This document shows, in pieces, positions 88 through 9,218 of a stretch of 10,586 bases of DNA. The stretch comes from a virus (lineage: Duplodnaviria; Heunggongvirae; Uroviricota; Caudoviricetes), in IMG/VR virus record IMGVR_UViG_2693429700_000023; one strand, written 5' to 3'. The translations under genes were made by a program, and so were the position numbers. Position 1 is the stretch's first letter, and every line of letters starts with the position of its first letter. The notes under the pieces were generated by a model, which was given only the letters and a program-made list of their open reading frames with translations, searched no databases and was not told where the DNA came from.

Positions 88-141
88 CCTGTTTACCTCT
101 TTCTCAGGGAGTTTAGTCTCCAGGATTTCCGGGGCGGTTCA
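1..141 (-). mobile_element. IS3-family insertion sequence, one end only (element continues beyond window start)
   Basis: Read on the minus strand from 141, the sequence begins 5'-TGAACCGCCCCGG, a TG-initiated terminal inverted repeat typical of IS3-family elements. It is followed by an SD (AAAGAGG) and an ATG at 87..85 opening a transposase OrfA-like ORF. The exact IS name cannot be assigned without ISfinder. Confidence 0.6.
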
Positions 142-887
142 TTCTGCATTGCTGCTGTTGGTGCATATGCTGACGTTAACGCATTTGCTCGGCTAATATC
201 CTGCCCTCTCGCCTGAAGTGCTTCGCCAGCCTGATTGCTGCGGATTGTCTCTGCCAACTCGCCGCGCTCAATATCCCGACCTTCCATTTGATCTTTGATA
301 TCGAAATACTTCTCATGACCGAGAGAAAACAGCGCCAGATTACCTGCGAAATGCTGGAAGCCCTGCGGGTCATTAACCTGCATTTCAGCAATAGTTTCTG
401 GAGGGATACCTAAACGACGCATCTCCTGCTCATTATCCATCATGAACCTGCCAAATGCGCCCGGACCAAGCGATGAGGCTACCTGTGCTTTGAGCGCCAG
501 ATTGCCATAATCATCCCTTTGAGCATCATCGACATAACTCATCCCTTTACGGACTTCCTCAAACTCTTCTGGGAATGCTGTAATAAGATTACGCATCTGC
601 TCCCTGTCGCCGGACGCATAAGCATCTGCATAACCTTTCTGGAATGCCGCTTTACGCTCCTGCTGTTGCTGCTGCTTATAAATATCAGCAACTCCAGCCA
701 GACCACGTAACGCGGTCAGACCAACGTTATTTGCACCTGAGCGAGCCAGTTCATTGTTTTCGCGGATCAGACCAAGCGTTGCGTTAATGTCGCTTGCCTT
801 TGGCGCATTCTCATTTTGCGTACCGATGCCAGCCAGAAAACCACCAGAATTAATACCCTGTTGCCACGTAGCCATTGATTTACCCAC
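93..887 (-). CDS. Hypothetical protein (~260 aa), 3' end disrupted by the IS insertion
   Basis: Long minus-strand ORF from the track. The track start at 887 is a GTG; the first ATG is at 875 (MATWQQGINSGG...). The last 16 codons (EPPRKSWRLNSLRKR) are encoded by the IS terminal repeat (93..141), so the native C-terminus is lost or replaced. Contains a QQQQQ run from a CTG/CAG tract near 661..676. No family recognised. Confidence 0.5.
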   Translation of the reverse strand: MGKSMATWQQGINSGGFLAGIGTQNENAPKASDINATLGLIRENNELARSGANNVGLTALRGLAGVADIYKQQQQQERKAAFQKGYADAYASGDREQMRNLITAFPEEFEEVRKGMSYVDDAQRDDYGNLALKAQVASSLGPGAFGRFMMDNEQEMRRLGIPPETIAEMQVNDPQGFQHFAGNLALFSLGHEKYFDIKDQMEGRDIERGELAETIRSNQAGEALQARGQDISRANALTSAYAPTAAMQNEPPRKSWRLNSLRKR

Positions 888-1637: not shown

Positions 1638-4394
1638 TCATTCTTCAGATGAGTTGTAATCTCCTGGCTGGTAATTGAGTACATAAACGTTTATTTGTCG
1701 TCCCTGAATACGTGGTGATTTTCTTTGGTATCCACGACCGCTGTTTGGTGGGGTTAGCATCCCGGCTTTTTTCAACACTTCAGCAAACTGTTTTGCGTTG
1801 AAACCACATGCGATCTCCTTTTCAAATGTGGCCGGGAATGTGTAGAAAATCATTGGGCTTTCGTCATGTTCTCCACGCTGACGGTATCCGGCTAAATCTT
1901 TGATTGGCAAATCTGCCGGGCTGTATGGAAATGGTGCAAAACGGCTAAGCCCATAGGCATTAAGAAATGCCTCCGTTTGTTCAATAATCTGCTGATGTTC
2001 TTTGTTACCTGTGCCGAACTCGCGCAACCATGCGTTATAGCTGTGCTGTATCGCATCACGGCATGTCTGAGCATCCCAGCCTGTTACAACCTCGCCTAAC
2101 AGCAATGCGGCCTCCAGAATGGCAAATCGCGCGGCTACACGGTGAACCTGCTCACCATAATCGGATGGAATCAGGCTTCTCCATCTGCTTTCGCAGTCAC
2201 GAACAGTTTTAATAGCCTGTTGCTGGTGGTCTGCCAGCCATTTAATCCACTCACGCCCGGCTGCGCCGTGGTGATGCTGGTAAGCGTCTTTCAGTGCGTC
2301 TGCGTGCTGTTTTCCGTTCTGGTAATCGTGAAAGCGTACTGCTTTACTCAACGGAATATTCAGCAGTCGCACCAGTTGCCCGGCTTTGGTTTTTCGCCCG
2401 GAAGTAGCGATAAATGTTTCTAAATCCATTTCTCCAGTGCTGATTGCCACTGTACGCCAGCGTTTTAGATCCCGGTTTCCACCATCTTTAGCGCCTTGCA
2501 GTTTCCCTACACCGTTAAATAACGCATAGGCAGACTGTGAAACACTGACAGGATCAGCGCCCTGACCAACTTCATCAAGCGGCATTAGTCCGTCATTGTG
2601 GGCGGCGGCTTCATTTGCCAGCCCCAGCGCGGTTCCGTACCACGTCAGCCGCAGTAAATCAGGGTTGCCGTATAAGCTGCTCGCCACGTTTGCCGTGGTG
2701 GTCTTACCTGCGCTCGACTGCTCATAGAAATGAATGCCGAACCCGTCAGCGCCCACCAGCCCAATCAATGGCGCTGCCAGTGCTGCGCCGATCCCGATCA
2801 TCATTGAATAGTTACCAAAGGCCAGACGCGCCACGTTATCACGCCAGCTTTTCGCGCTCCCTGAGACGGTATATCCGGCTGCGGCTGAGCTTCTCCCGCT
2901 GAACAGCACAGGATTTTCAGGTGTTCCGATGATTTCCCCATCAGGCATGATGTACGCTCCGCATTGCCAGCCAGTGGCATGAGCAACACGCCACAATTCA
3001 CGAGAGCCACTGCGTTGTAGCCAGTCTGCCAGTATTGCTCTGAGGCTGCTTTTGGTCGTGACATTTACCCCACCAGCTTTAAGTGTGCGCCATCCTTCAC
3101 GTTCACCAATATCAGCCAGTGGAATGGCAGCGGTTGTCGGCGTTTCAGAACCAAACGACAGCCAGCGAAGAATGAGATACTGGTCTTTATCGTCTCTGCC
3201 AGTACCGATAACGCTTAACGGAGAACATAACCAGCTTTCGTTATTGATGATTTCTCCACTCTGGCTGTCAGCTCTCGGAGATACCCAATAAATACCATCC
3301 TCGCGGCTTTCTATTCTTGGTTTCAGTGGGTCGGTATCCATAACCTTAAAATCGCTTCCCTCAATGGTCTGTGGCTGCTGTTTCACGCCATTACCCTGTG
3401 GTTGGTACATTGACTTATTGAACGCTTCTGTGGCGCATTTAATGCCGTGTTTTTGGTGGTAATCATTCCAGTCTGCTTTGTGATCTGTCGGGGGTAATGC
3501 CACCCATCCAGAAACAGATAAAGCTGCTTTTTCTGCTGCTATTCTCCCCGTGTTTTGTCTTCCTTCGCTGTGGTCGTTATCCGCAGCAATGATGATTTGT
3601 GCTGAAGGAAATTTATCCCGCAGTACCTGGGCGACATATAACAGGTTCCCGGCATCAATCGCCGCCACTGTCAGCGATTCTGGACGAATTAAATGGGCAG
3701 ATAATGCCGTTGCCAGCCCTTCTGCGATTAAGATGCTCTGTGTTGTTTCTGGTGCGTTTATGGCGTGATATGCCCCTCGCTTTGCTGAACCTGTCAGGAG
3801 TCTTTTTTCACCATGTGAGGTAATAGTCTGTGCTGCTGTGACTGCGCCGGATTTATCCACCAGCGCCAGCAACAGAGATCCATCGGGCAACACTGGGAAT
3901 GTAAAATCACCTACCCCTTTCGCAACCAGATAATCAGATTTGCCGTTTACAGCCTTTCTGCGCATGTCATCAAACTGACGGGAAAACGTATCCCGTCTTT
4001 GTTGTTCGTCCTTCTCTGCCCTTTTCAGGCGCTCCTGTTCGCGTCGCTGGCGCTCGGTTTCCAGTTGTTCCCGTTTCTGGCTGGTGGCTTCTGGTGTTTC
4101 CGTTGTCCGGTAATCAATACCCAGAACATCAGCGGCAAGAAGCGCCGCCTCTGTTGTGTCGCAGTTATTTACGCGTTTAATTAAATCCAGCCCATCACCA
4201 GCGCCGCACTGATTACAGATGAAGCTACCGCGCCCGTTGTCGTCGAACCGGAATCGATCTTTGCCCCCACATGCAGGGCAGGGAGCATGACGGCGAGGAG
4301 AGTCAGGGACATTTATGTTCAGACAGCCCAGCACATGAGGCCAGTTGTTTTCAGACGCACTGATAACCTGACGGATAAGATCAATGTTTCGCAT
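1638..4394 (-). CDS. Primase-helicase-like replication protein (N-terminal Zn-ribbon, TOPRIM, C-terminal P-loop/DUF927-like domain), 918 aa
   Basis: The N-terminus has CPACGG...CNQCG (CxxC-N17-CxxC zinc ribbon), then a charged ER-rich linker. The TOPRIM signatures are present: a conserved Glu (IAEGLATA) and DxD (IIIAADNDHSEGR). Further on is a deviant P-loop (SSAGKTT). SD GGGGG lies 5 nt upstream of the ATG at 4394. The family call is from motif recognition, not a search. Confidence 0.88.
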   Translation of the reverse strand: MRNIDLIRQVISASENNWPHVLGCLNINVPDSPRRHAPCPACGGKDRFRFDDNGRGSFICNQCGAGDGLDLIKRVNNCDTTEAALLAADVLGIDYRTTETPEATSQKREQLETERQRREQERLKRAEKDEQQRRDTFSRQFDDMRRKAVNGKSDYLVAKGVGDFTFPVLPDGSLLLALVDKSGAVTAAQTITSHGEKRLLTGSAKRGAYHAINAPETTQSILIAEGLATALSAHLIRPESLTVAAIDAGNLLYVAQVLRDKFPSAQIIIAADNDHSEGRQNTGRIAAEKAALSVSGWVALPPTDHKADWNDYHQKHGIKCATEAFNKSMYQPQGNGVKQQPQTIEGSDFKVMDTDPLKPRIESREDGIYWVSPRADSQSGEIINNESWLCSPLSVIGTGRDDKDQYLILRWLSFGSETPTTAAIPLADIGEREGWRTLKAGGVNVTTKSSLRAILADWLQRSGSRELWRVAHATGWQCGAYIMPDGEIIGTPENPVLFSGRSSAAAGYTVSGSAKSWRDNVARLAFGNYSMMIGIGAALAAPLIGLVGADGFGIHFYEQSSAGKTTTANVASSLYGNPDLLRLTWYGTALGLANEAAAHNDGLMPLDEVGQGADPVSVSQSAYALFNGVGKLQGAKDGGNRDLKRWRTVAISTGEMDLETFIATSGRKTKAGQLVRLLNIPLSKAVRFHDYQNGKQHADALKDAYQHHHGAAGREWIKWLADHQQQAIKTVRDCESRWRSLIPSDYGEQVHRVAARFAILEAALLLGEVVTGWDAQTCRDAIQHSYNAWLREFGTGNKEHQQIIEQTEAFLNAYGLSRFAPFPYSPADLPIKDLAGYRQRGEHDESPMIFYTFPATFEKEIACGFNAKQFAEVLKKAGMLTPPNSGRGYQRKSPRIQGRQINVYVLNYQPGDYNSSEE

Positions 4395-5483: not shown

Positions 5484-5674
5484 TTTTCACCCCCAAGAAT
5501 TACCAGCTCGGCACGGGCATCGTTAACCAAAGATGAGCACGCTTTAATCGCATCCACGACATCAGCAGCGTCCATTTCTTCAGCCGAAAGACTGACAGCA
5601 ACCAGGACAGCCGCTGCTTGCTCGATTAATTGAAGTGCGGACGTAAGGCGAGGGGTATTAATTGAGTTATTCAT
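5480..5674 (-). CDS. Hypothetical small protein (64 aa)
   Basis: The track ORF is 5480..5731; I prefer the internal ATG at 5674 ([10 protein letters not shown]...), which has SD GGGGG upstream and overlaps the upstream stop as ATGAATAA. Predicted helical and acidic. Confidence 0.45.
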   Translation of the reverse strand: MNNSINTPRLTSALQLIEQAAAVLVAVSLSAEEMDAADVVDAIKACSSLVNDARAELVILGGEK

Positions 5675-5885
5675 TGGTTGCCCCCGTTTTTCCTGGCATT
5701 TCGCCACCTTCCAGCAGGAAATGAACGTCACGAACGGCGAGATCCAATATCGCGAGTAACGCCTTCAGCCTTTCGTCTCGTGAGGGAGAGTTGCTCACCA
5801 GAATGTCGTTAATCACTTCTGTCAGTGTGATGATCTGGCTTGTGCGTTCGAGGGGATCCATATGCACATCGTAGGTTTTAATCAT
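5667..5885 (-). CDS. Hypothetical small protein (72 aa), modelled as a separate gene in the 3' part of the 355-codon ORF
   Basis: The internal ATG at 5885..5883 ([15 protein letters not shown]...) is preceded by a strong SD GGAGGTGG and overlaps the stop of the frame-B gene as ATGATTAA. Codon usage from here to the stop at 5667 looks coding. This is an alternative model to the full 355-aa ORF. Confidence 0.45.
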   Translation of the reverse strand: MIKTYDVHMDPLERTSQIITLTEVINDILVSNSPSRDERLKALLAILDLAVRDVHFLLEGGEMPGKTGATNE

Positions 5886-6734
5886 GTGCCACCTCCATGC
5901 GGATACGACCAGCAAAAAAGCAGACGTGATCGCGCACCAGAGAACGGCGAGCATCGCGTTCAGACTCGGCAGCAATATGATGAATTTTGGCGGTAATTGT
6001 CGGGCAATCGCGGCGAACTGCGGCGATAATCCAGATAAATTGCGGTTTTTGGGTAGGGGTAGTAGCCAGCATGTGGCAGCCTCCATTCGATAGCATGTAA
6101 CGCTACCACCGGAAACGCCAATTTCGCTGGTGGTAGCCCAGACAGGGTTGGCGTAACCGGCTCGAATGGATACCGGCGCTTCCGAAGAAGCCCCTGCCTG
6201 AGCCACCATTGATTGACAAAGGCGCTGGATTATACACCAACGCCCAAAAAATGGGTGAGTCAGACCTACGACATAAAAAAAGACGCTCGGCGCGTCATAT
6301 GTCGCCATTCGATTTACCAGGACGCCAATCCCGGCACCCGTTTTATGAGGTGCCTTATAACCATAAACCGTGTTGCCGCATAACGGCAAGCTCTTTTTTA
6401 TGGACTCCGAAAACTCGCTATTGGAAGCACCAGATGCACAGTACATCGCGCTCATTTCGTTAACGTCACGCGCGTGGACGAATGTTTTTGTGGAGTCACT
6501 ACACGAGCGGAAGACATCATCTACGACCAGAAATTTTCTGGCGCAGCCGCTGACCTTCTCAATGCTAATATCATCGCCCGAGATTTCTGATATGGTTAAG
6601 GCATCCGTTCCGACCACCAGCAAATGATAAACTTTGCTTGTATCTGCTGTATTAATGCCTGACTTTGCCGTCATATTGCTGGATTTTGGCGACATACCAG
6701 CCAGTGAAAATGTCTTCTTCTGGACGGTTAGCAT
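5667..6734 (-). CDS. Uninterrupted 355-codon ORF; the N-terminal ~220 codons look like a real unknown gene, 3' boundary unresolved
   Basis: ATG at 6734 has SD GGAGG 7 nt upstream and overlaps the upstream stop (ATGCTAA). The N-terminal region is protein-like and contains KFLVVDDVF (6510..6536). The frame stays open to 5667, but between about 6072 and 5886 the coding signal moves to another frame. The true product is therefore either a 355-aa fusion or a shorter protein with an unseen end. Confidence 0.45.
5878..6072 (-). CDS. Hypothetical small protein (64 aa) in a different frame from the 355-codon ORF
   Basis: Track ORF 5878..6096; I prefer the second ATG at 6072 ([16 protein letters not shown]...), which has SD GGAGG 7 nt upstream. 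This frame uses common codons with G-rich first positions, whereas the overlapping frame of the 355-codon ORF is Leu/Pro/Ser-rich with rare codons (CTA, TTA, CCC, CGA, ATA, AGG). Confidence 0.5.
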   Translation of the reverse strand: MLATTPTQKPQFIWIIAAVRRDCPTITAKIHHIAAESERDARRSLVRDHVCFFAGRIRMEVAHD

Positions 6735-6910
6735 TTGTTAACCTCCGCGAACTCCTTCATGAAACGCGCCAGCGGTTGTACGCATGGCGATTGATACCCG
6801 TCGCGATAAAACGTCACTCGGTTGTGAGACACGCTTTCGACAGTAACGAGTGCTCCGTGGGCATCTTTGTAGCGTTTTTGTGGTTGTGGTGTTCCTGTTG
6901 GCTTAGACAT
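6728..6910 (-). CDS. Hypothetical small protein (60 aa)
   Basis: The track ORF is 6728..6997; I prefer the internal ATG at 6910 (MSKPTGTPQPQKRYK...), which has SD GGAGGTGG upstream and overlaps the antirepressor stop as ATGTCTAA. Its own stop overlaps the next start. Confidence 0.45.
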   Translation of the reverse strand: MSKPTGTPQPQKRYKDAHGALVTVESVSHNRVTFYRDGYQSPCVQPLARFMKEFAEVNKC

Positions 6911-7736
6911 TGACCACCTCCAGACGCTTGGCGAGCCAGCGTTGCGACAGGCGGGTGAGTTCTCCTTTGCGCTGCTCATATTCCATGCCCATATCAATTA
7001 ACGTGATATTGGTGCTTTCGAGATATGAGAGGTGCTCAAGCTGTTCTGCGTTCATATGGTCGCGAGGTTCGCCAGAATAGCCATTTATCCGCGCCCACTG
7101 CTTAGCAGTTAGCCCACCAAGAACGATACGAGAAATCATATTGCTCTCGTTTGTGTAGTGGTGTTGCTGCGTCGTTTTACCCATCTCGGCACGGGCCATA
7201 TTCAGCGCATCGCACATTGGCTTAAAGTTGTTTGCGGCACTGATACGGGCTTTTAGCTGGCGACGATAGCGGGCGGCGATTTCAGGCACGCTACGCTGTA
7301 ATTCTTCCTCGCACTGGATGAAATAACGGCGGATAGCGCGACCCTGATCATTGCGTTCGATCATTGCCAGTTCTTTCGCCATTCCGACACTTAACAGATA
7401 GTCTTTGCCGGGTCTGCCAGACTGCTTAATCTTGCTGTAAGCCGCGCCATTCGGGCTTTTCCCCAAATTTGGGGAAATTGTTTTATGGACTGAGTAATCG
7501 TGCCCAATGGTGAAGTCATATTCAGAGATGCGATCAGTGATCCATGTAGAGAAGTCTTTTCCCACGCCCAACGCTTTGTGTAACGCTTTTGCGCTAACAA
7601 TATTGGTTTCACGCCCACCGATATGACCAGGAATAACCGGGACAATTGCGGCAAATTCATTACCGTTAATTGTGCCCAGAGAGGCGTTCAGATGAGGGGC
7701 GGCCTCAGAAATTAATCTGCTTTTTTCGATGTTCAT
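6903..7736 (-). CDS. Phage antirepressor-like protein with an AntA-type N-terminal domain (277 aa)
   Basis: The N-terminal half matches the AntA/AntB antirepressor pattern as I recall it: SAKALHKALGVGKDFSTWITDRISEYDFTIGHDY ... DYLLSVGMAKELAMIERNDQGRAIRRYFIQCEE. SD GGAGA lies 7 nt upstream of the ATG at 7736. The C-terminal half is unassigned. Confidence 0.7.
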   Translation of the reverse strand: MNIEKSRLISEAAPHLNASLGTINGNEFAAIVPVIPGHIGGRETNIVSAKALHKALGVGKDFSTWITDRISEYDFTIGHDYSVHKTISPNLGKSPNGAAYSKIKQSGRPGKDYLLSVGMAKELAMIERNDQGRAIRRYFIQCEEELQRSVPEIAARYRRQLKARISAANNFKPMCDALNMARAEMGKTTQQHHYTNESNMISRIVLGGLTAKQWARINGYSGEPRDHMNAEQLEHLSYLESTNITLIDMGMEYEQRKGELTRLSQRWLAKRLEVVNV

Positions 7737-7748
7737 TTTCAGTCTCCG

Positions 7749-8180
7749 TTAGGCGGCGTTAAACGCGTCCGGGTAGAGTTTCAGAATGTCGGCAATTTCC
7801 TGCTGAGAAAGTCCGTTGTGATCATTTATGCTCGCAAGATGGTTAACATGAGTGATCACTTTCAGAACATCACCACGGCAGGAGAAACGGTAGCGAAGGT
7901 GTGTTCCGATACCATCAGGATTCTTTTCGTCGATACGCTCCAGAGTGATTCCAAGCTGGCGTTCTAACTCTGTTGCATAGTTACGACCAGAAGACAGACG
8001 GCAGTAGCGAAGAATGTCATTTTCTGTCCATCCCTCTATACCAGTACGCAGCATATAGACTCTGGCACGATGCTTTTTCGGTGTGCGCTTTGGTGCTTGA
8101 AGGGATTTTGTCAGGGGCGTAACATCAGATACGCGAATATCTGAATTAGCCGCCTGTAATGGGCGGTTTTTCTTTTCCAT
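7749..8180 (-). CDS. Hypothetical protein (143 aa)
   Basis: Track ORF. Its ATG at 8180 shares one base with the alpA stop (TGATG) and is preceded by GAGGTGG encoded in the alpA C-terminus. Basic N-terminus; no family recognised. Confidence 0.55.
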   Translation of the reverse strand: MEKKNRPLQAANSDIRVSDVTPLTKSLQAPKRTPKKHRARVYMLRTGIEGWTENDILRYCRLSSGRNYATELERQLGITLERIDEKNPDGIGTHLRYRFSCRGDVLKVITHVNHLASINDHNGLSQQEIADILKLYPDAFNAA

Positions 8181-8383
8181 CAGGCCACCTCGTCTCTAGA
8201 TTCTAATATACACTTCTCAATCCATTCATCTATTTCAGACTCAACAAAAGCAATTGCCCGACTTCCAATTTTTACCTGTTTAGGGAACCTCCCCTGACTA
8301 ATAAGACGATAAATCCATGCTTTGCTATAACCAGTTCGCCTTTGAACTTCAGAGAGACGAATTAATGAATTGTAATTAGCCAT
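8180..8383 (-). CDS. alpA: AlpA-family (prophage regulatory / excisionase-like HTH) transcriptional regulator, 67 aa
   Basis: A small protein with an HTH-like core (IRLSEVQRRTGYSKAWIYRLISQGRFPKQVKIGSRAIAFVESEIDEW) resembling AlpA-type regulators, placed directly downstream of an integrase remnant as in P4-like and PICI-like elements. Confidence 0.75.
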   Translation of the reverse strand: MANYNSLIRLSEVQRRTGYSKAWIYRLISQGRFPKQVKIGSRAIAFVESEIDEWIEKCILESRDEVA

Positions 8384-8470
8384 TTATTAATATCCTGTAC
8401 TAATGACGCAATAACTCCCTCCTGCAACGAATGGCGAGAGTTTTATTTGCATCAAATGTCGAATACGCCA

Positions 8471-8503
8471 AAGACCACAATATGAAAAACATATTGCGGT
8501 CTT
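8471..8503. promoter_or_regulatory. 33-bp near-perfect palindrome (operator-like) in the int-alpA intergenic region
   Basis: AAGACCACAATATG-AAAAA-CATATTGCGGTCTT: 14-bp arms with one mismatch, about 90-120 bp upstream of the alpA start. A palindromic TTTATAAA abuts it (8503..8510). Confidence 0.4.
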
Positions 8504-8662
8504 TTATAAAAGATAGTCAGATTGTTTTGGTTTGTTTGCTCCACAAGGGTAGAGCTACCCTGCATTTCGGCAGGATCACGCTATTAGGCGTGACATCCAG
8601 TAGTTTTAAAGAACGCCCTTTTTCAGGGCATGGTGGGCAGGCAAGAGAGCAATTGCGCTTTG

Positions 8663-8977
8663 TCAGCGCCGTAGATTCATATTTGAATCATTGTATGTTT
8701 CCCGGGCAATCTTTTCCTCTCGTTTCGCTTCCATCGGATCGATACCACCAGCGATACCTCTTTTCGCATCTTCACGTTTTGCCCGAGCATCGGCTAGAGT
8801 AACCTCAGGATACACACCTAGTGCCAATAGCTTCTCTTTACCAGCTACACGATATTTAAGTCGCCAGTATTTACCTCCATTAGGTTTTACCAAGAGATAC
8901 AAACCGCCACCATCGGCCAGCTTGTAAGCCTTCTCTTTTGGCTTGGCTGTGTCTATTTGACGGGCATTGAGTTTCAC
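8663..8977 (-). pseudogene. Tyrosine integrase (P4-family) remnant: N-terminal arm-binding region only, 104 codons
   Basis: The ORF (GTG start at 8977, SD GGAGGT upstream) encodes KLNARQIDTAKPKEKAYKLADGGGLYLLVKPNGGKYWRLKYR..., which resembles the N-terminal arm-type DNA-binding domain of tRNA-associated integrases. Full-length enzymes are about 400 aa, and only 279 bp remain before alpA, so the catalytic domain is absent. Confidence 0.7.
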
Positions 8978-9142: not shown

Positions 9143-9218
9143 TGGTGCCGATAATAGGAGTCGAACCTACGACCTTCGCATTACGAATGCGCTGCTCTAC
9201 CAACTGAGCTATATCGGC
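9143..9218 (-). tRNA. thrW: tRNA-Thr (anticodon CGU)
   Basis: The reverse complement is a 76-nt tRNA with a 7-bp acceptor stem (GCCGATA/TATCGGC), a D-arm GCTCAGTTGGTAGAGC, anticodon loop TTCGTAA (anticodon CGT), T-arm GGTTCGACTCC and a 3' CCA. The CCA end (9143..9145) faces the mobile-element side. Confidence 0.95.

Follow-up and report, generated by a model that had tools for sequence, protein, structure and literature searches.

The window analysed here, 10,586 nucleotides (nt) of the IMG/VR virus record IMGVR_UViG_2693429700_000023 (Caudoviricetes), carries the immunity and early-control module of a P4-like satellite located at a tRNA-Thr gene beside proA. Central to the module is a 355-codon open reading frame (ORF) that runs through a putative promoter, two structured RNA genes and, out of frame, a complete icd/kil-like gene. 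Chance, sequencing error and pseudogene decay do not account for this long ORF, which appears to be kept open for the transit of ribosomes rather than for the protein that it would encode. As an explanation, we favour, with a probability of roughly 0.7, a read-through model of the immunity module similar to that of the eta, kil and cI genes of P4. The features on which the argument is built are the following.

5667..6734, minus strand: long eta-like read-through ORF of 355 codons (ORF list; named 'ash family protein' by the Prokaryotic Genome Annotation Pipeline, PGAP)
6390..6734, minus strand: variable N-terminal module of the long ORF, of no known family and weakly constrained (ratio of nonsynonymous to synonymous change, pN/pS, 0.38-0.48)
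6360..6389, minus strand: putative internal sigma-70 promoter, PLE-like (sequence reading and alignment)
6276..6353, minus strand: isrK/P4-seqA-type leader RNA (Rfam RF01394, 67.1 bits; gathering score 50)
6126..6213, minus strand: C4/P4-CI-type antisense immunity RNA (Rfam RF01695, 79.5 bits; gathering score 45)
6080..6090, minus strand: seqC-like target TCGAATGGA (6090-6082), identified by loop complementarity and overlapping the Shine-Dalgarno (SD) sequence GGAGG of icd (6084-6080)
5878..6072, minus strand: icd/kil-like gene of 64 amino acids (aa), wholly overlapped by the long ORF in the +1 frame (NCBIfam NF033153, 5e-20)
5667..5885, minus strand: 72-aa gene (WP_000598361.1), function not assigned, with its own SD at 5896-5892

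The frame was typed automatically in a set of loci comprising 19 from other genera, 80 from IMG/VR, the Escherichia coli relatives and P4. In 97 of 99 loci, one and only one frame is open over the 285 nt preceding the icd ATG, and the same holds for all seven loci in which icd starts with GTG. The register of this frame with respect to the C4 RNA never varies, and overall it is open in 104 of the 106 loci. Over the same stretch the other two frames contain on average 3.85 stops each, and in dinucleotide shuffles a given frame is open in 3.9% of cases. About 3% of all possible substitutions create a stop, and a crude estimate of the divergence spanned by the loci leads one to expect tens of such events; only two loci are broken. 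The open frame usually begins 365-1235 nt upstream of icd. In 82 of the 99 loci its start is coupled to an upstream ORF of at least 40 codons, whose stop it overlaps; 81 of these coupled starts have a recognisable SD and one lacks it. In the window, the ATG of the long ORF (6734-6732) overlaps the TAA (6730-6728) of the upstream DUF4222 gene. A 39-nt deletion found in one locus (L006) is in frame, and the long ORFs in the databases are mosaics of unrelated N- and C-terminal modules which are always joined in frame.

In the E. coli variants, which have 95 differences in 280 nt over the RNA region 6073-6353, pN/pS of the long frame is about 1.1. Within icd the ratio is about 0.2 in the icd frame, which is under purifying selection, and 2-4 in the +1 long frame. 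Over the RNA region and icd, stops are selected against and amino acid changes are not. Since the frame is open in 104 of 106 loci and its amino acids are unconstrained, it is selected to stay open and not for a particular protein. The N-terminal module is replaced by unrelated sequences or is nearly absent in the relatives, with at least three unrelated modules present in the corresponding alignment (A2), and in locus L019 the long ORF starts merely 365 nt before icd. The other end of the ORF is formed by the 72-aa gene, which differs from its counterpart in locus L009 by four synonymous and no nonsynonymous substitutions and has equally placed homologues in L018, L019 and L023. Neither the 72-aa gene nor the N-terminal module has a match in PHROGs or Pfam.

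The overlap of the two frames had been noted in a preliminary description of this DNA as a conflict between the 355-codon ORF and a better-coding 64-codon ORF (5878-6072), and all the sequence features put forward there are present. The shorter ORF has its own SD (GGAGG at 6084-6080, followed by a 7-nt spacer and the ATG at 6072), and an alternative in-frame ATG is found at 6096. At the junction with the next gene, the icd stop TAA (5880-5878) overlaps at ATGATTAA with an ATG at 5885, which is preceded by GGAGG (5896-5892) and is in the long frame, so that the 72-aa gene makes up the C-terminus of the long ORF. The rare codons reported for the long frame between 5886 and 6072 were recovered (CTA and TTA three times each, CGA, ATA and AGG), except that CCC occurs twice rather than once; the icd frame uses none of these six codons. 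According to the Kazusa table for E. coli K-12, the mean log2 codon score over 5886-6072 is +0.28 in the icd frame and -0.17 in the long frame, and the reference genes primase and proA score +0.12 and +0.37 in their own frames.

Among the interpretations that had been offered, a genuine nested out-of-frame gene is borne out by the NF033153 match, the low pN/pS and conservation across genera, where the length of 62-65 aa is kept. As P4 Kil matches NF033153 too (1.6e-21), the 64-aa product can be described from its family as Icd-like, probably toxin-like and homologous to P4 Kil. The ATG at 5885 does open a separate gene, and the icd-like and 72-aa genes are cistrons with their own SDs. It had also been proposed that the first of three genes lacks a visible stop; the frame is indeed open, but its middle part is taken up by a promoter and by isrK-like and C4/CI-like RNA genes, which had gone unseen. 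Comparison with homologues, suggested as a check on a single 355-aa protein, revealed conserved openness but no good codon adaptation throughout. The RNA of the 5' half of icd is C-rich and G-poor, a composition that would be compatible with a Rho loading site.

The loci fall into two states according to the distance between the start of the C4 RNA and the icd ATG. In 47 loci the distance is 142 nt (or 139/145), and the long ORF is in frame with icd and ends at the icd stop, as in P4. In the remaining 59 loci, including the window, it is 141 nt (or 138) and the ORF is at +1. For most window-type loci the difference resides in the spacer between SD and ATG, which is 7 nt (GCTGCCA-CATG) instead of 8; in L018 and L026 it is due to other indels. 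Because of the spacer being 1 nt shorter, the long ORF of the window lies at +1, crosses icd, joins the 72-aa gene and attains 355 codons. Both states are found inside each of four clusters of loci with at least 90% identical RNA regions, and the state has therefore been switched repeatedly. The +1 frame through icd is open in all 42 distinct window-type sequences and in 9 of the 36 P4-type ones, compared to fractions of 0.54 and 0.24 predicted by synonymous resampling (joint probability approximately 10^-4.6 for nine representatives). The window-type ORF merges with an in-frame downstream gene in 55 of 59 loci and otherwise stops just past icd. Loci of the +1 type were found in Klebsiella, Pluralibacter, Leclercia and Symbiopectobacterium; they account for 47 of the 72 IMG/VR loci with an ATG start, and hundreds of protein clusters show this type as well. 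The suggestion of a 1-2 nt indel near 6075-6100 came close, the spacer having 7 nt against the 8 nt of the P4 type, but the difference reflects neither a lost stop nor an assembly error.

The sequence elements that the long ORF traverses are those of an RNA-based immunity system. The putative internal promoter consists of a -35 hexamer TTGCCG (6389-6384), an 18-nt spacer and a -10 hexamer TATGGT (6365-6360), with an A-tract just upstream, and its predicted +1 position is G6353, the 5' end of isrK. A generic promoter scan did not detect this promoter; it was revealed by the alignment of 39 distinct sequences, in which the two hexamers are kept while the spacer varies. The inverted repeat TTGCCGTTATGCGGCAA (6373-6389), read by the scan as a terminator-like hairpin on the plus strand, overlaps the -35 hexamer and the spacer and could be an operator. 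The isrK leader contains a target sequence, TCGAATGG (6312-6305), and, according to a terminator scan, an intrinsic terminator composed of a stem (6296-6282) and a T-run. An isrK-type leader is present in 18 of the 19 genome loci from other genera. The C4 RNA was found in all 19 and in P4, and its stems display compensatory changes. The leader from 6353 to 6060 folds into a structure much stabler than those of shuffled sequences (z = -5.6). Additional covarying hairpins are located between C4 and the icd SD (6091-6125 and the counterparts in other loci), where GGTGGTAGC is able to pair with the 3' arm of the outer stem of C4 and a small hairpin TAGC-N7-GCTA is also present; this suggests alternative structures of the precursor transcript.

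The specificity of the module can be traced to hairpin 2 of the C4 RNA. Its loop (6172-6161) contains the recognition core TCCATTCGA (6170-6162), which is exactly complementary to the 9 nt of TCGAATGGA at the icd SD and to the 8 nt of TCGAATGG in the isrK linker. Divergence among the close E. coli relatives is nearly all confined to 6085-6330, and there the loop and both targets change together. In total, 98 loci comprise 25 distinct loop variants. The icd SD site is complementary to the C4 loop of the same locus over at least 8 nt in 95 of the 98 loci, and non-cognate pairs typically reach 3-5 nt. The isrK linker usually also matches the loop of its own locus, yielding a three-way covariation of loop and targets. 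P1 c4 and P4 CI follow the same logic of heteroimmunity.

The P4 module provides the model. Its immunity elements follow the order PLE - seqA - cI - seqC - kil, with kil nested in eta (Forti et al., 1999, J Bacteriol 181:5225, and Sabbattini et al., 1995, both via PMC10111431), and relatives of CI and seqA are detected by the Rfam C4 and isrK models (PMC10111431). According to the same account, a constitutive promoter is located inside eta, and its transcript is terminated via an interaction of CI with seqA and processed to CI; Kil corresponds to a truncated Eta; eta is reported to be translated, nonsense mutations in eta cause termination, and translation of Eta from the late promoter prevents it (Forti et al., 1999, per PMC10111431). 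By analogy, transcription in the window would start at the internal promoter (approximately 6360-6389) and produce the isrK/seqA leader with its terminator and then the C4/CI RNA. In the immune state, C4 RNA would block translation of icd, and the untranslated C-rich RNA would be terminated. On transcripts initiated further upstream, ribosomes loading at 6734 would translate the whole stretch, from the promoter and the terminator across both RNA genes and icd. Their transit would shield the transcript both from termination and from the antisense RNA, allowing expression of the replication genes. The operon runs on past the 72-aa gene to the primase.

Several points weigh against this read-through model. 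The anti-termination role is taken from P4 by homology, and the translating ribosomes would have to override the intrinsic terminator at 6282-6296, which is plausible. The loci are not phylogenetically independent, many of those from IMG/VR being near-duplicates from E. coli, and the P-values are therefore rough. The frame is broken in L030, which has a stop at about -240, and in L087, where the frame seems to shift by 1 nt between -219 and -155; these may be decaying copies or sequencing errors. Furthermore, conservation at the RNA level accounts for part of the stability of the frame, and the pN/pS of 0.4-0.5 in the N-terminal module may allow for some protein function.

A more far-reaching version of the model is offered only tentatively, and we would give it somewhat less than an even chance. 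It regards the ORF as a 'translation-only' frame, of which just the openness and the coupled start are selected. With ribosomes sweeping across, late transcription would no longer respond to the RNA repressor that the element itself encodes, and 1-nt changes between C4 and the icd ATG would switch between an Eta-Kil fusion and a fusion to the next gene that bypasses Kil, the latter uncoupling anti-termination from the toxic Kil. In a limited literature search, no description was found of the out-of-frame fused configuration or of selection for openness only.

Among the alternatives, the one that survives best, although we consider it unlikely, is that the long ORF is an annotation artefact, a chance open frame over GC-rich structured RNA genes which is never translated, with only isrK, C4, icd and the 72-aa gene being real. 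The pN/pS of about 1 and the poor codon usage of the long frame are what would be expected in that case. Structure prediction with AlphaFold2 (AF2) also found no fold (mean pLDDT 31, with 20-40 over the ASH segment and 50-55, the best of the ORF and still low, over the 72-aa part), although with an alignment as shallow as 28 sequences this is weak negative evidence. Finally, PGAP annotates the same sequence in two ways, and the segment matched by the Phage_ASH family is precisely the one made up of the -10 element, isrK, C4 and the icd SD. A chance frame would, however, hardly be open in 104 of 106 loci despite heavy divergence while the other frames accumulate stops, nor is it likely to be open through icd in every window-type sequence and only in a quarter of the P4-type ones. 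The SD and start-stop overlap conserved in 81 of 99 loci, the in-frame deletion in L006 and the reported translation of P4 eta, in which nonsense mutations cause termination (Forti et al., 1999, per PMC10111431), likewise speak against it.

Slightly less probable still is that the ORF encodes a genuine 355-aa protein of the 'Ash family' or the Bro network, for instance a regulator, the sequence of which matters and in which the RNAs are merely embedded. The long ORF does match Phage_ASH (PF10554; 3e-30, 105 bits, cutoff 26) over aa 124-232, equivalent to nt 6039-6365; hundreds of database proteins of 320-375 aa are named 'ash family protein', and some authors treat the gene as a Bro-network gene with embedded RNAs (PMC10111431). 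In addition, the N-terminal module has a pN/pS of 0.4-0.5. The matching segment is, however, the translation of the -10 element, isrK, C4 and the icd SD, and the family traces back to the old P4 'ash/cI' ORF; PF10554 looks like a nucleic acid signature read as protein and not like a protein domain. The conserved 'peptide motifs' map to promoter hexamers and RNA helices, SIKKGL...VYGY for example to the -35 and -10 hexamers, and the ASH region and the icd overlap are without amino acid constraint. Both terminal modules are swapped for unrelated ones, and in some loci the N-terminus is nearly absent. As the frame relative to icd differs between close relatives, their C-terminal thirds are wholly different, and AF2 finds no fold.

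Recoding, which had been among the early suggestions, would take the form of programmed -1 frameshifting from the long frame into the icd frame, thereby recreating a P4-like Eta-Kil fusion. The window and P4 types are one nucleotide apart, and a heptamer U UUU UUG in the correct register exists at +153 of icd (5919-5925). The search for slippery heptamers located it in only 13 of 46 distinct window-type sequences, where the conserved Phe-Phe of Icd gives rise to it, and every other heptamer was limited to one sequence at most. With no slippery site conserved, and with a +1 frame kept open through icd and beyond that would be needless if ribosomes left it, we regard frameshifting as highly improbable. 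The last possibility, that a sequencing or assembly indel or a recent pseudogenising loss of a stop produced the long frame, is effectively refuted by population data: a single-nt spacing difference from P4-type loci does underlie the frame relation, but the same 1068-nt ORF is found at 90-99.9% identity in many complete E. coli genomes (the configuration occurs in hundreds), and the same frame type characterises 59 of the 106 loci, from several genera, and 47 of the 72 ATG-start IMG/VR loci analysed.

The findings bear on the annotation of such elements. PGAP represents the region as one 355-aa 'ash family protein' in E. coli A29 (L001, NZ_CP028746), and as an Icd-like gene, a hypothetical gene and an 'ash' pseudogene in E. 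coli H9 (L002). It thereby either hides the Icd-like and 72-aa genes inside the long ORF or calls the long ORF a pseudogene. In the H9 locus, a 96.5% identical relative, the ORF had seemed to be broken based on the PGAP annotation; direct frame analysis shows that it is open. Both 'ash family protein' and PF10554 are widely used labels, and PF10554 corresponds to translated promoter, isrK/seqA and C4/CI RNA genes. A survey of P4-like satellites used PF10554 as the marker of P4 epsilon (PMC8628076). P4 epsilon matches PF25738 'Derepression', and PF10554 matches Eta aa 37-161, the seqA/CI RNA region (589-876 of the P4 locus, L008). The Kil/Icd-like ORF and the old P4 cI ORF are still described as 'transcriptional repressor' (PHROGs phrog_1743 and phrog_6928; RefSeq NC_001609, 8168-8584), a label that predates the demonstration that the P4 immunity factor is an RNA. 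The two frame states over about 100 loci amount to a natural experiment, and support the idea developed for P4 that ribosome transit, and not the Eta protein, is what counts. The module also shows clearly how an ORF selected only for openness can overlap a complete gene in another frame, and the 25 covarying loop/target variants can serve directly as a catalogue of the immunity specificities of satellites.

The genes of the element are all on the minus strand, from the tRNA-Thr(CGT) gene (9143-9218) beside proA to the left end of the window. By its gene layout the element reads as a P4-like or phage-inducible chromosomal island (PICI)-type satellite. The following genes surround the module.

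8663-8977, minus strand: truncated integrase of 104 aa, containing the Arm DNA-binding domain alone
8180-8383, minus strand: AlpA
between AlpA and AntA, minus strand: hypothetical gene
6903-7736, minus strand: AntA
6728-6910, minus strand: DUF4222 gene, directly upstream of the long ORF
1638-4394, minus strand: Zn-ribbon/Toprim/DUF927 primase

Given the truncated integrase, the element is probably an immobile remnant. Four small ORFs separate the long ORF from the primase. Beyond the primase, a 264-aa ORF (93-887, minus strand) matches Pfam Inj_translocase, an injectosome protein of phage P22 (1.3e-85), and represents an unexpected cargo. Two ORFs on the plus strand, 6370-6627 and 6474-6590, were rejected as genes, having no family support and a substitution pattern that does not fit. 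A cluster of first-position changes in 6503-6581 raised the question of another coding frame there; pN/pS weakly favours the long frame, and the segment contains no alternative ORF of at least 40 codons.

Elements of the module are shared with three known systems. The immI region of phages P1 and P7 is organised as c4 RNA - icd - ant1/ant2, and translation of icd is needed for downstream expression. There, and presumably here, an RNA of the C4 family (RF01695) is derived from the transcript of its own target, its loop pairs with the region of the ribosome-binding site of a small icd gene, and heteroimmunity arises through variation of loop and target. In contrast to P1 and P7, no ant antirepressor is coupled after icd; small ORFs and the primase are downstream, and AntA is upstream. 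We know of no long read-through ORF over c4 described in P1.

Hershko-Shalev et al. (2016, PMC4825925) describe IsrK as structurally homologous to P4 SeqA. The IsrK - orf45 - anrP region of Salmonella Gifsy-1 shares with the window the isrK Rfam family and a terminator that is partly read through (PMC4825925). A further parallel is that the nucleotides of the small ORF orf45 are conserved and its amino acids variable, and that its translation is required for the next gene via a stop/start overlap (PMC4825925). In Gifsy-1, however, translation is activated in trans by the short RNA, an antirepressor is encoded downstream, and neither an Icd/Kil-like gene nor a long overlapping ORF is reported (PMC4825925).

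The closest counterpart is P4, with whose old 'ash'/'cI 137 aa' ORF the region is aligned by BLAST. In our reanalysis of P4, eta was reproduced with three possible ATGs (8767, 8764 and 8761; 197-199 aa) and kil with its ATG at 8365, 65 aa and the same SD GGAGGCTGCC; CI was found at 8420-8507 (RF01695, 74.9 bits) and the isrK-type leader at 8615-8692. Common to both elements are the internal promoter, the isrK/seqA leader, the C4/CI RNA, the site covering the SD, the Kil/Icd-like gene of 64-65 aa and the replication genes, as well as a long ORF that opens ahead of the internal promoter, in coupling with the gene before it, and extends over the RNAs. Both seqA-like and seqC-like targets are complementary to the RNA loop, and the frame of the long ORF relative to the C4 RNA is the same. 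The mechanism itself is carried over from P4 by homology. The elements differ in that the upstream gene is DUF4222, preceded by AntA, instead of an alpA homologue, and in that the isrK element of the window has a clear intrinsic terminator. Above all, P4 kil is the in-frame C-terminal part of eta with a shared stop, whereas here the long ORF passes through icd at +1 (141 versus 142 nt). The layout is known in kind from P4, and the frame offset by one base is what distinguishes the satellite described here.

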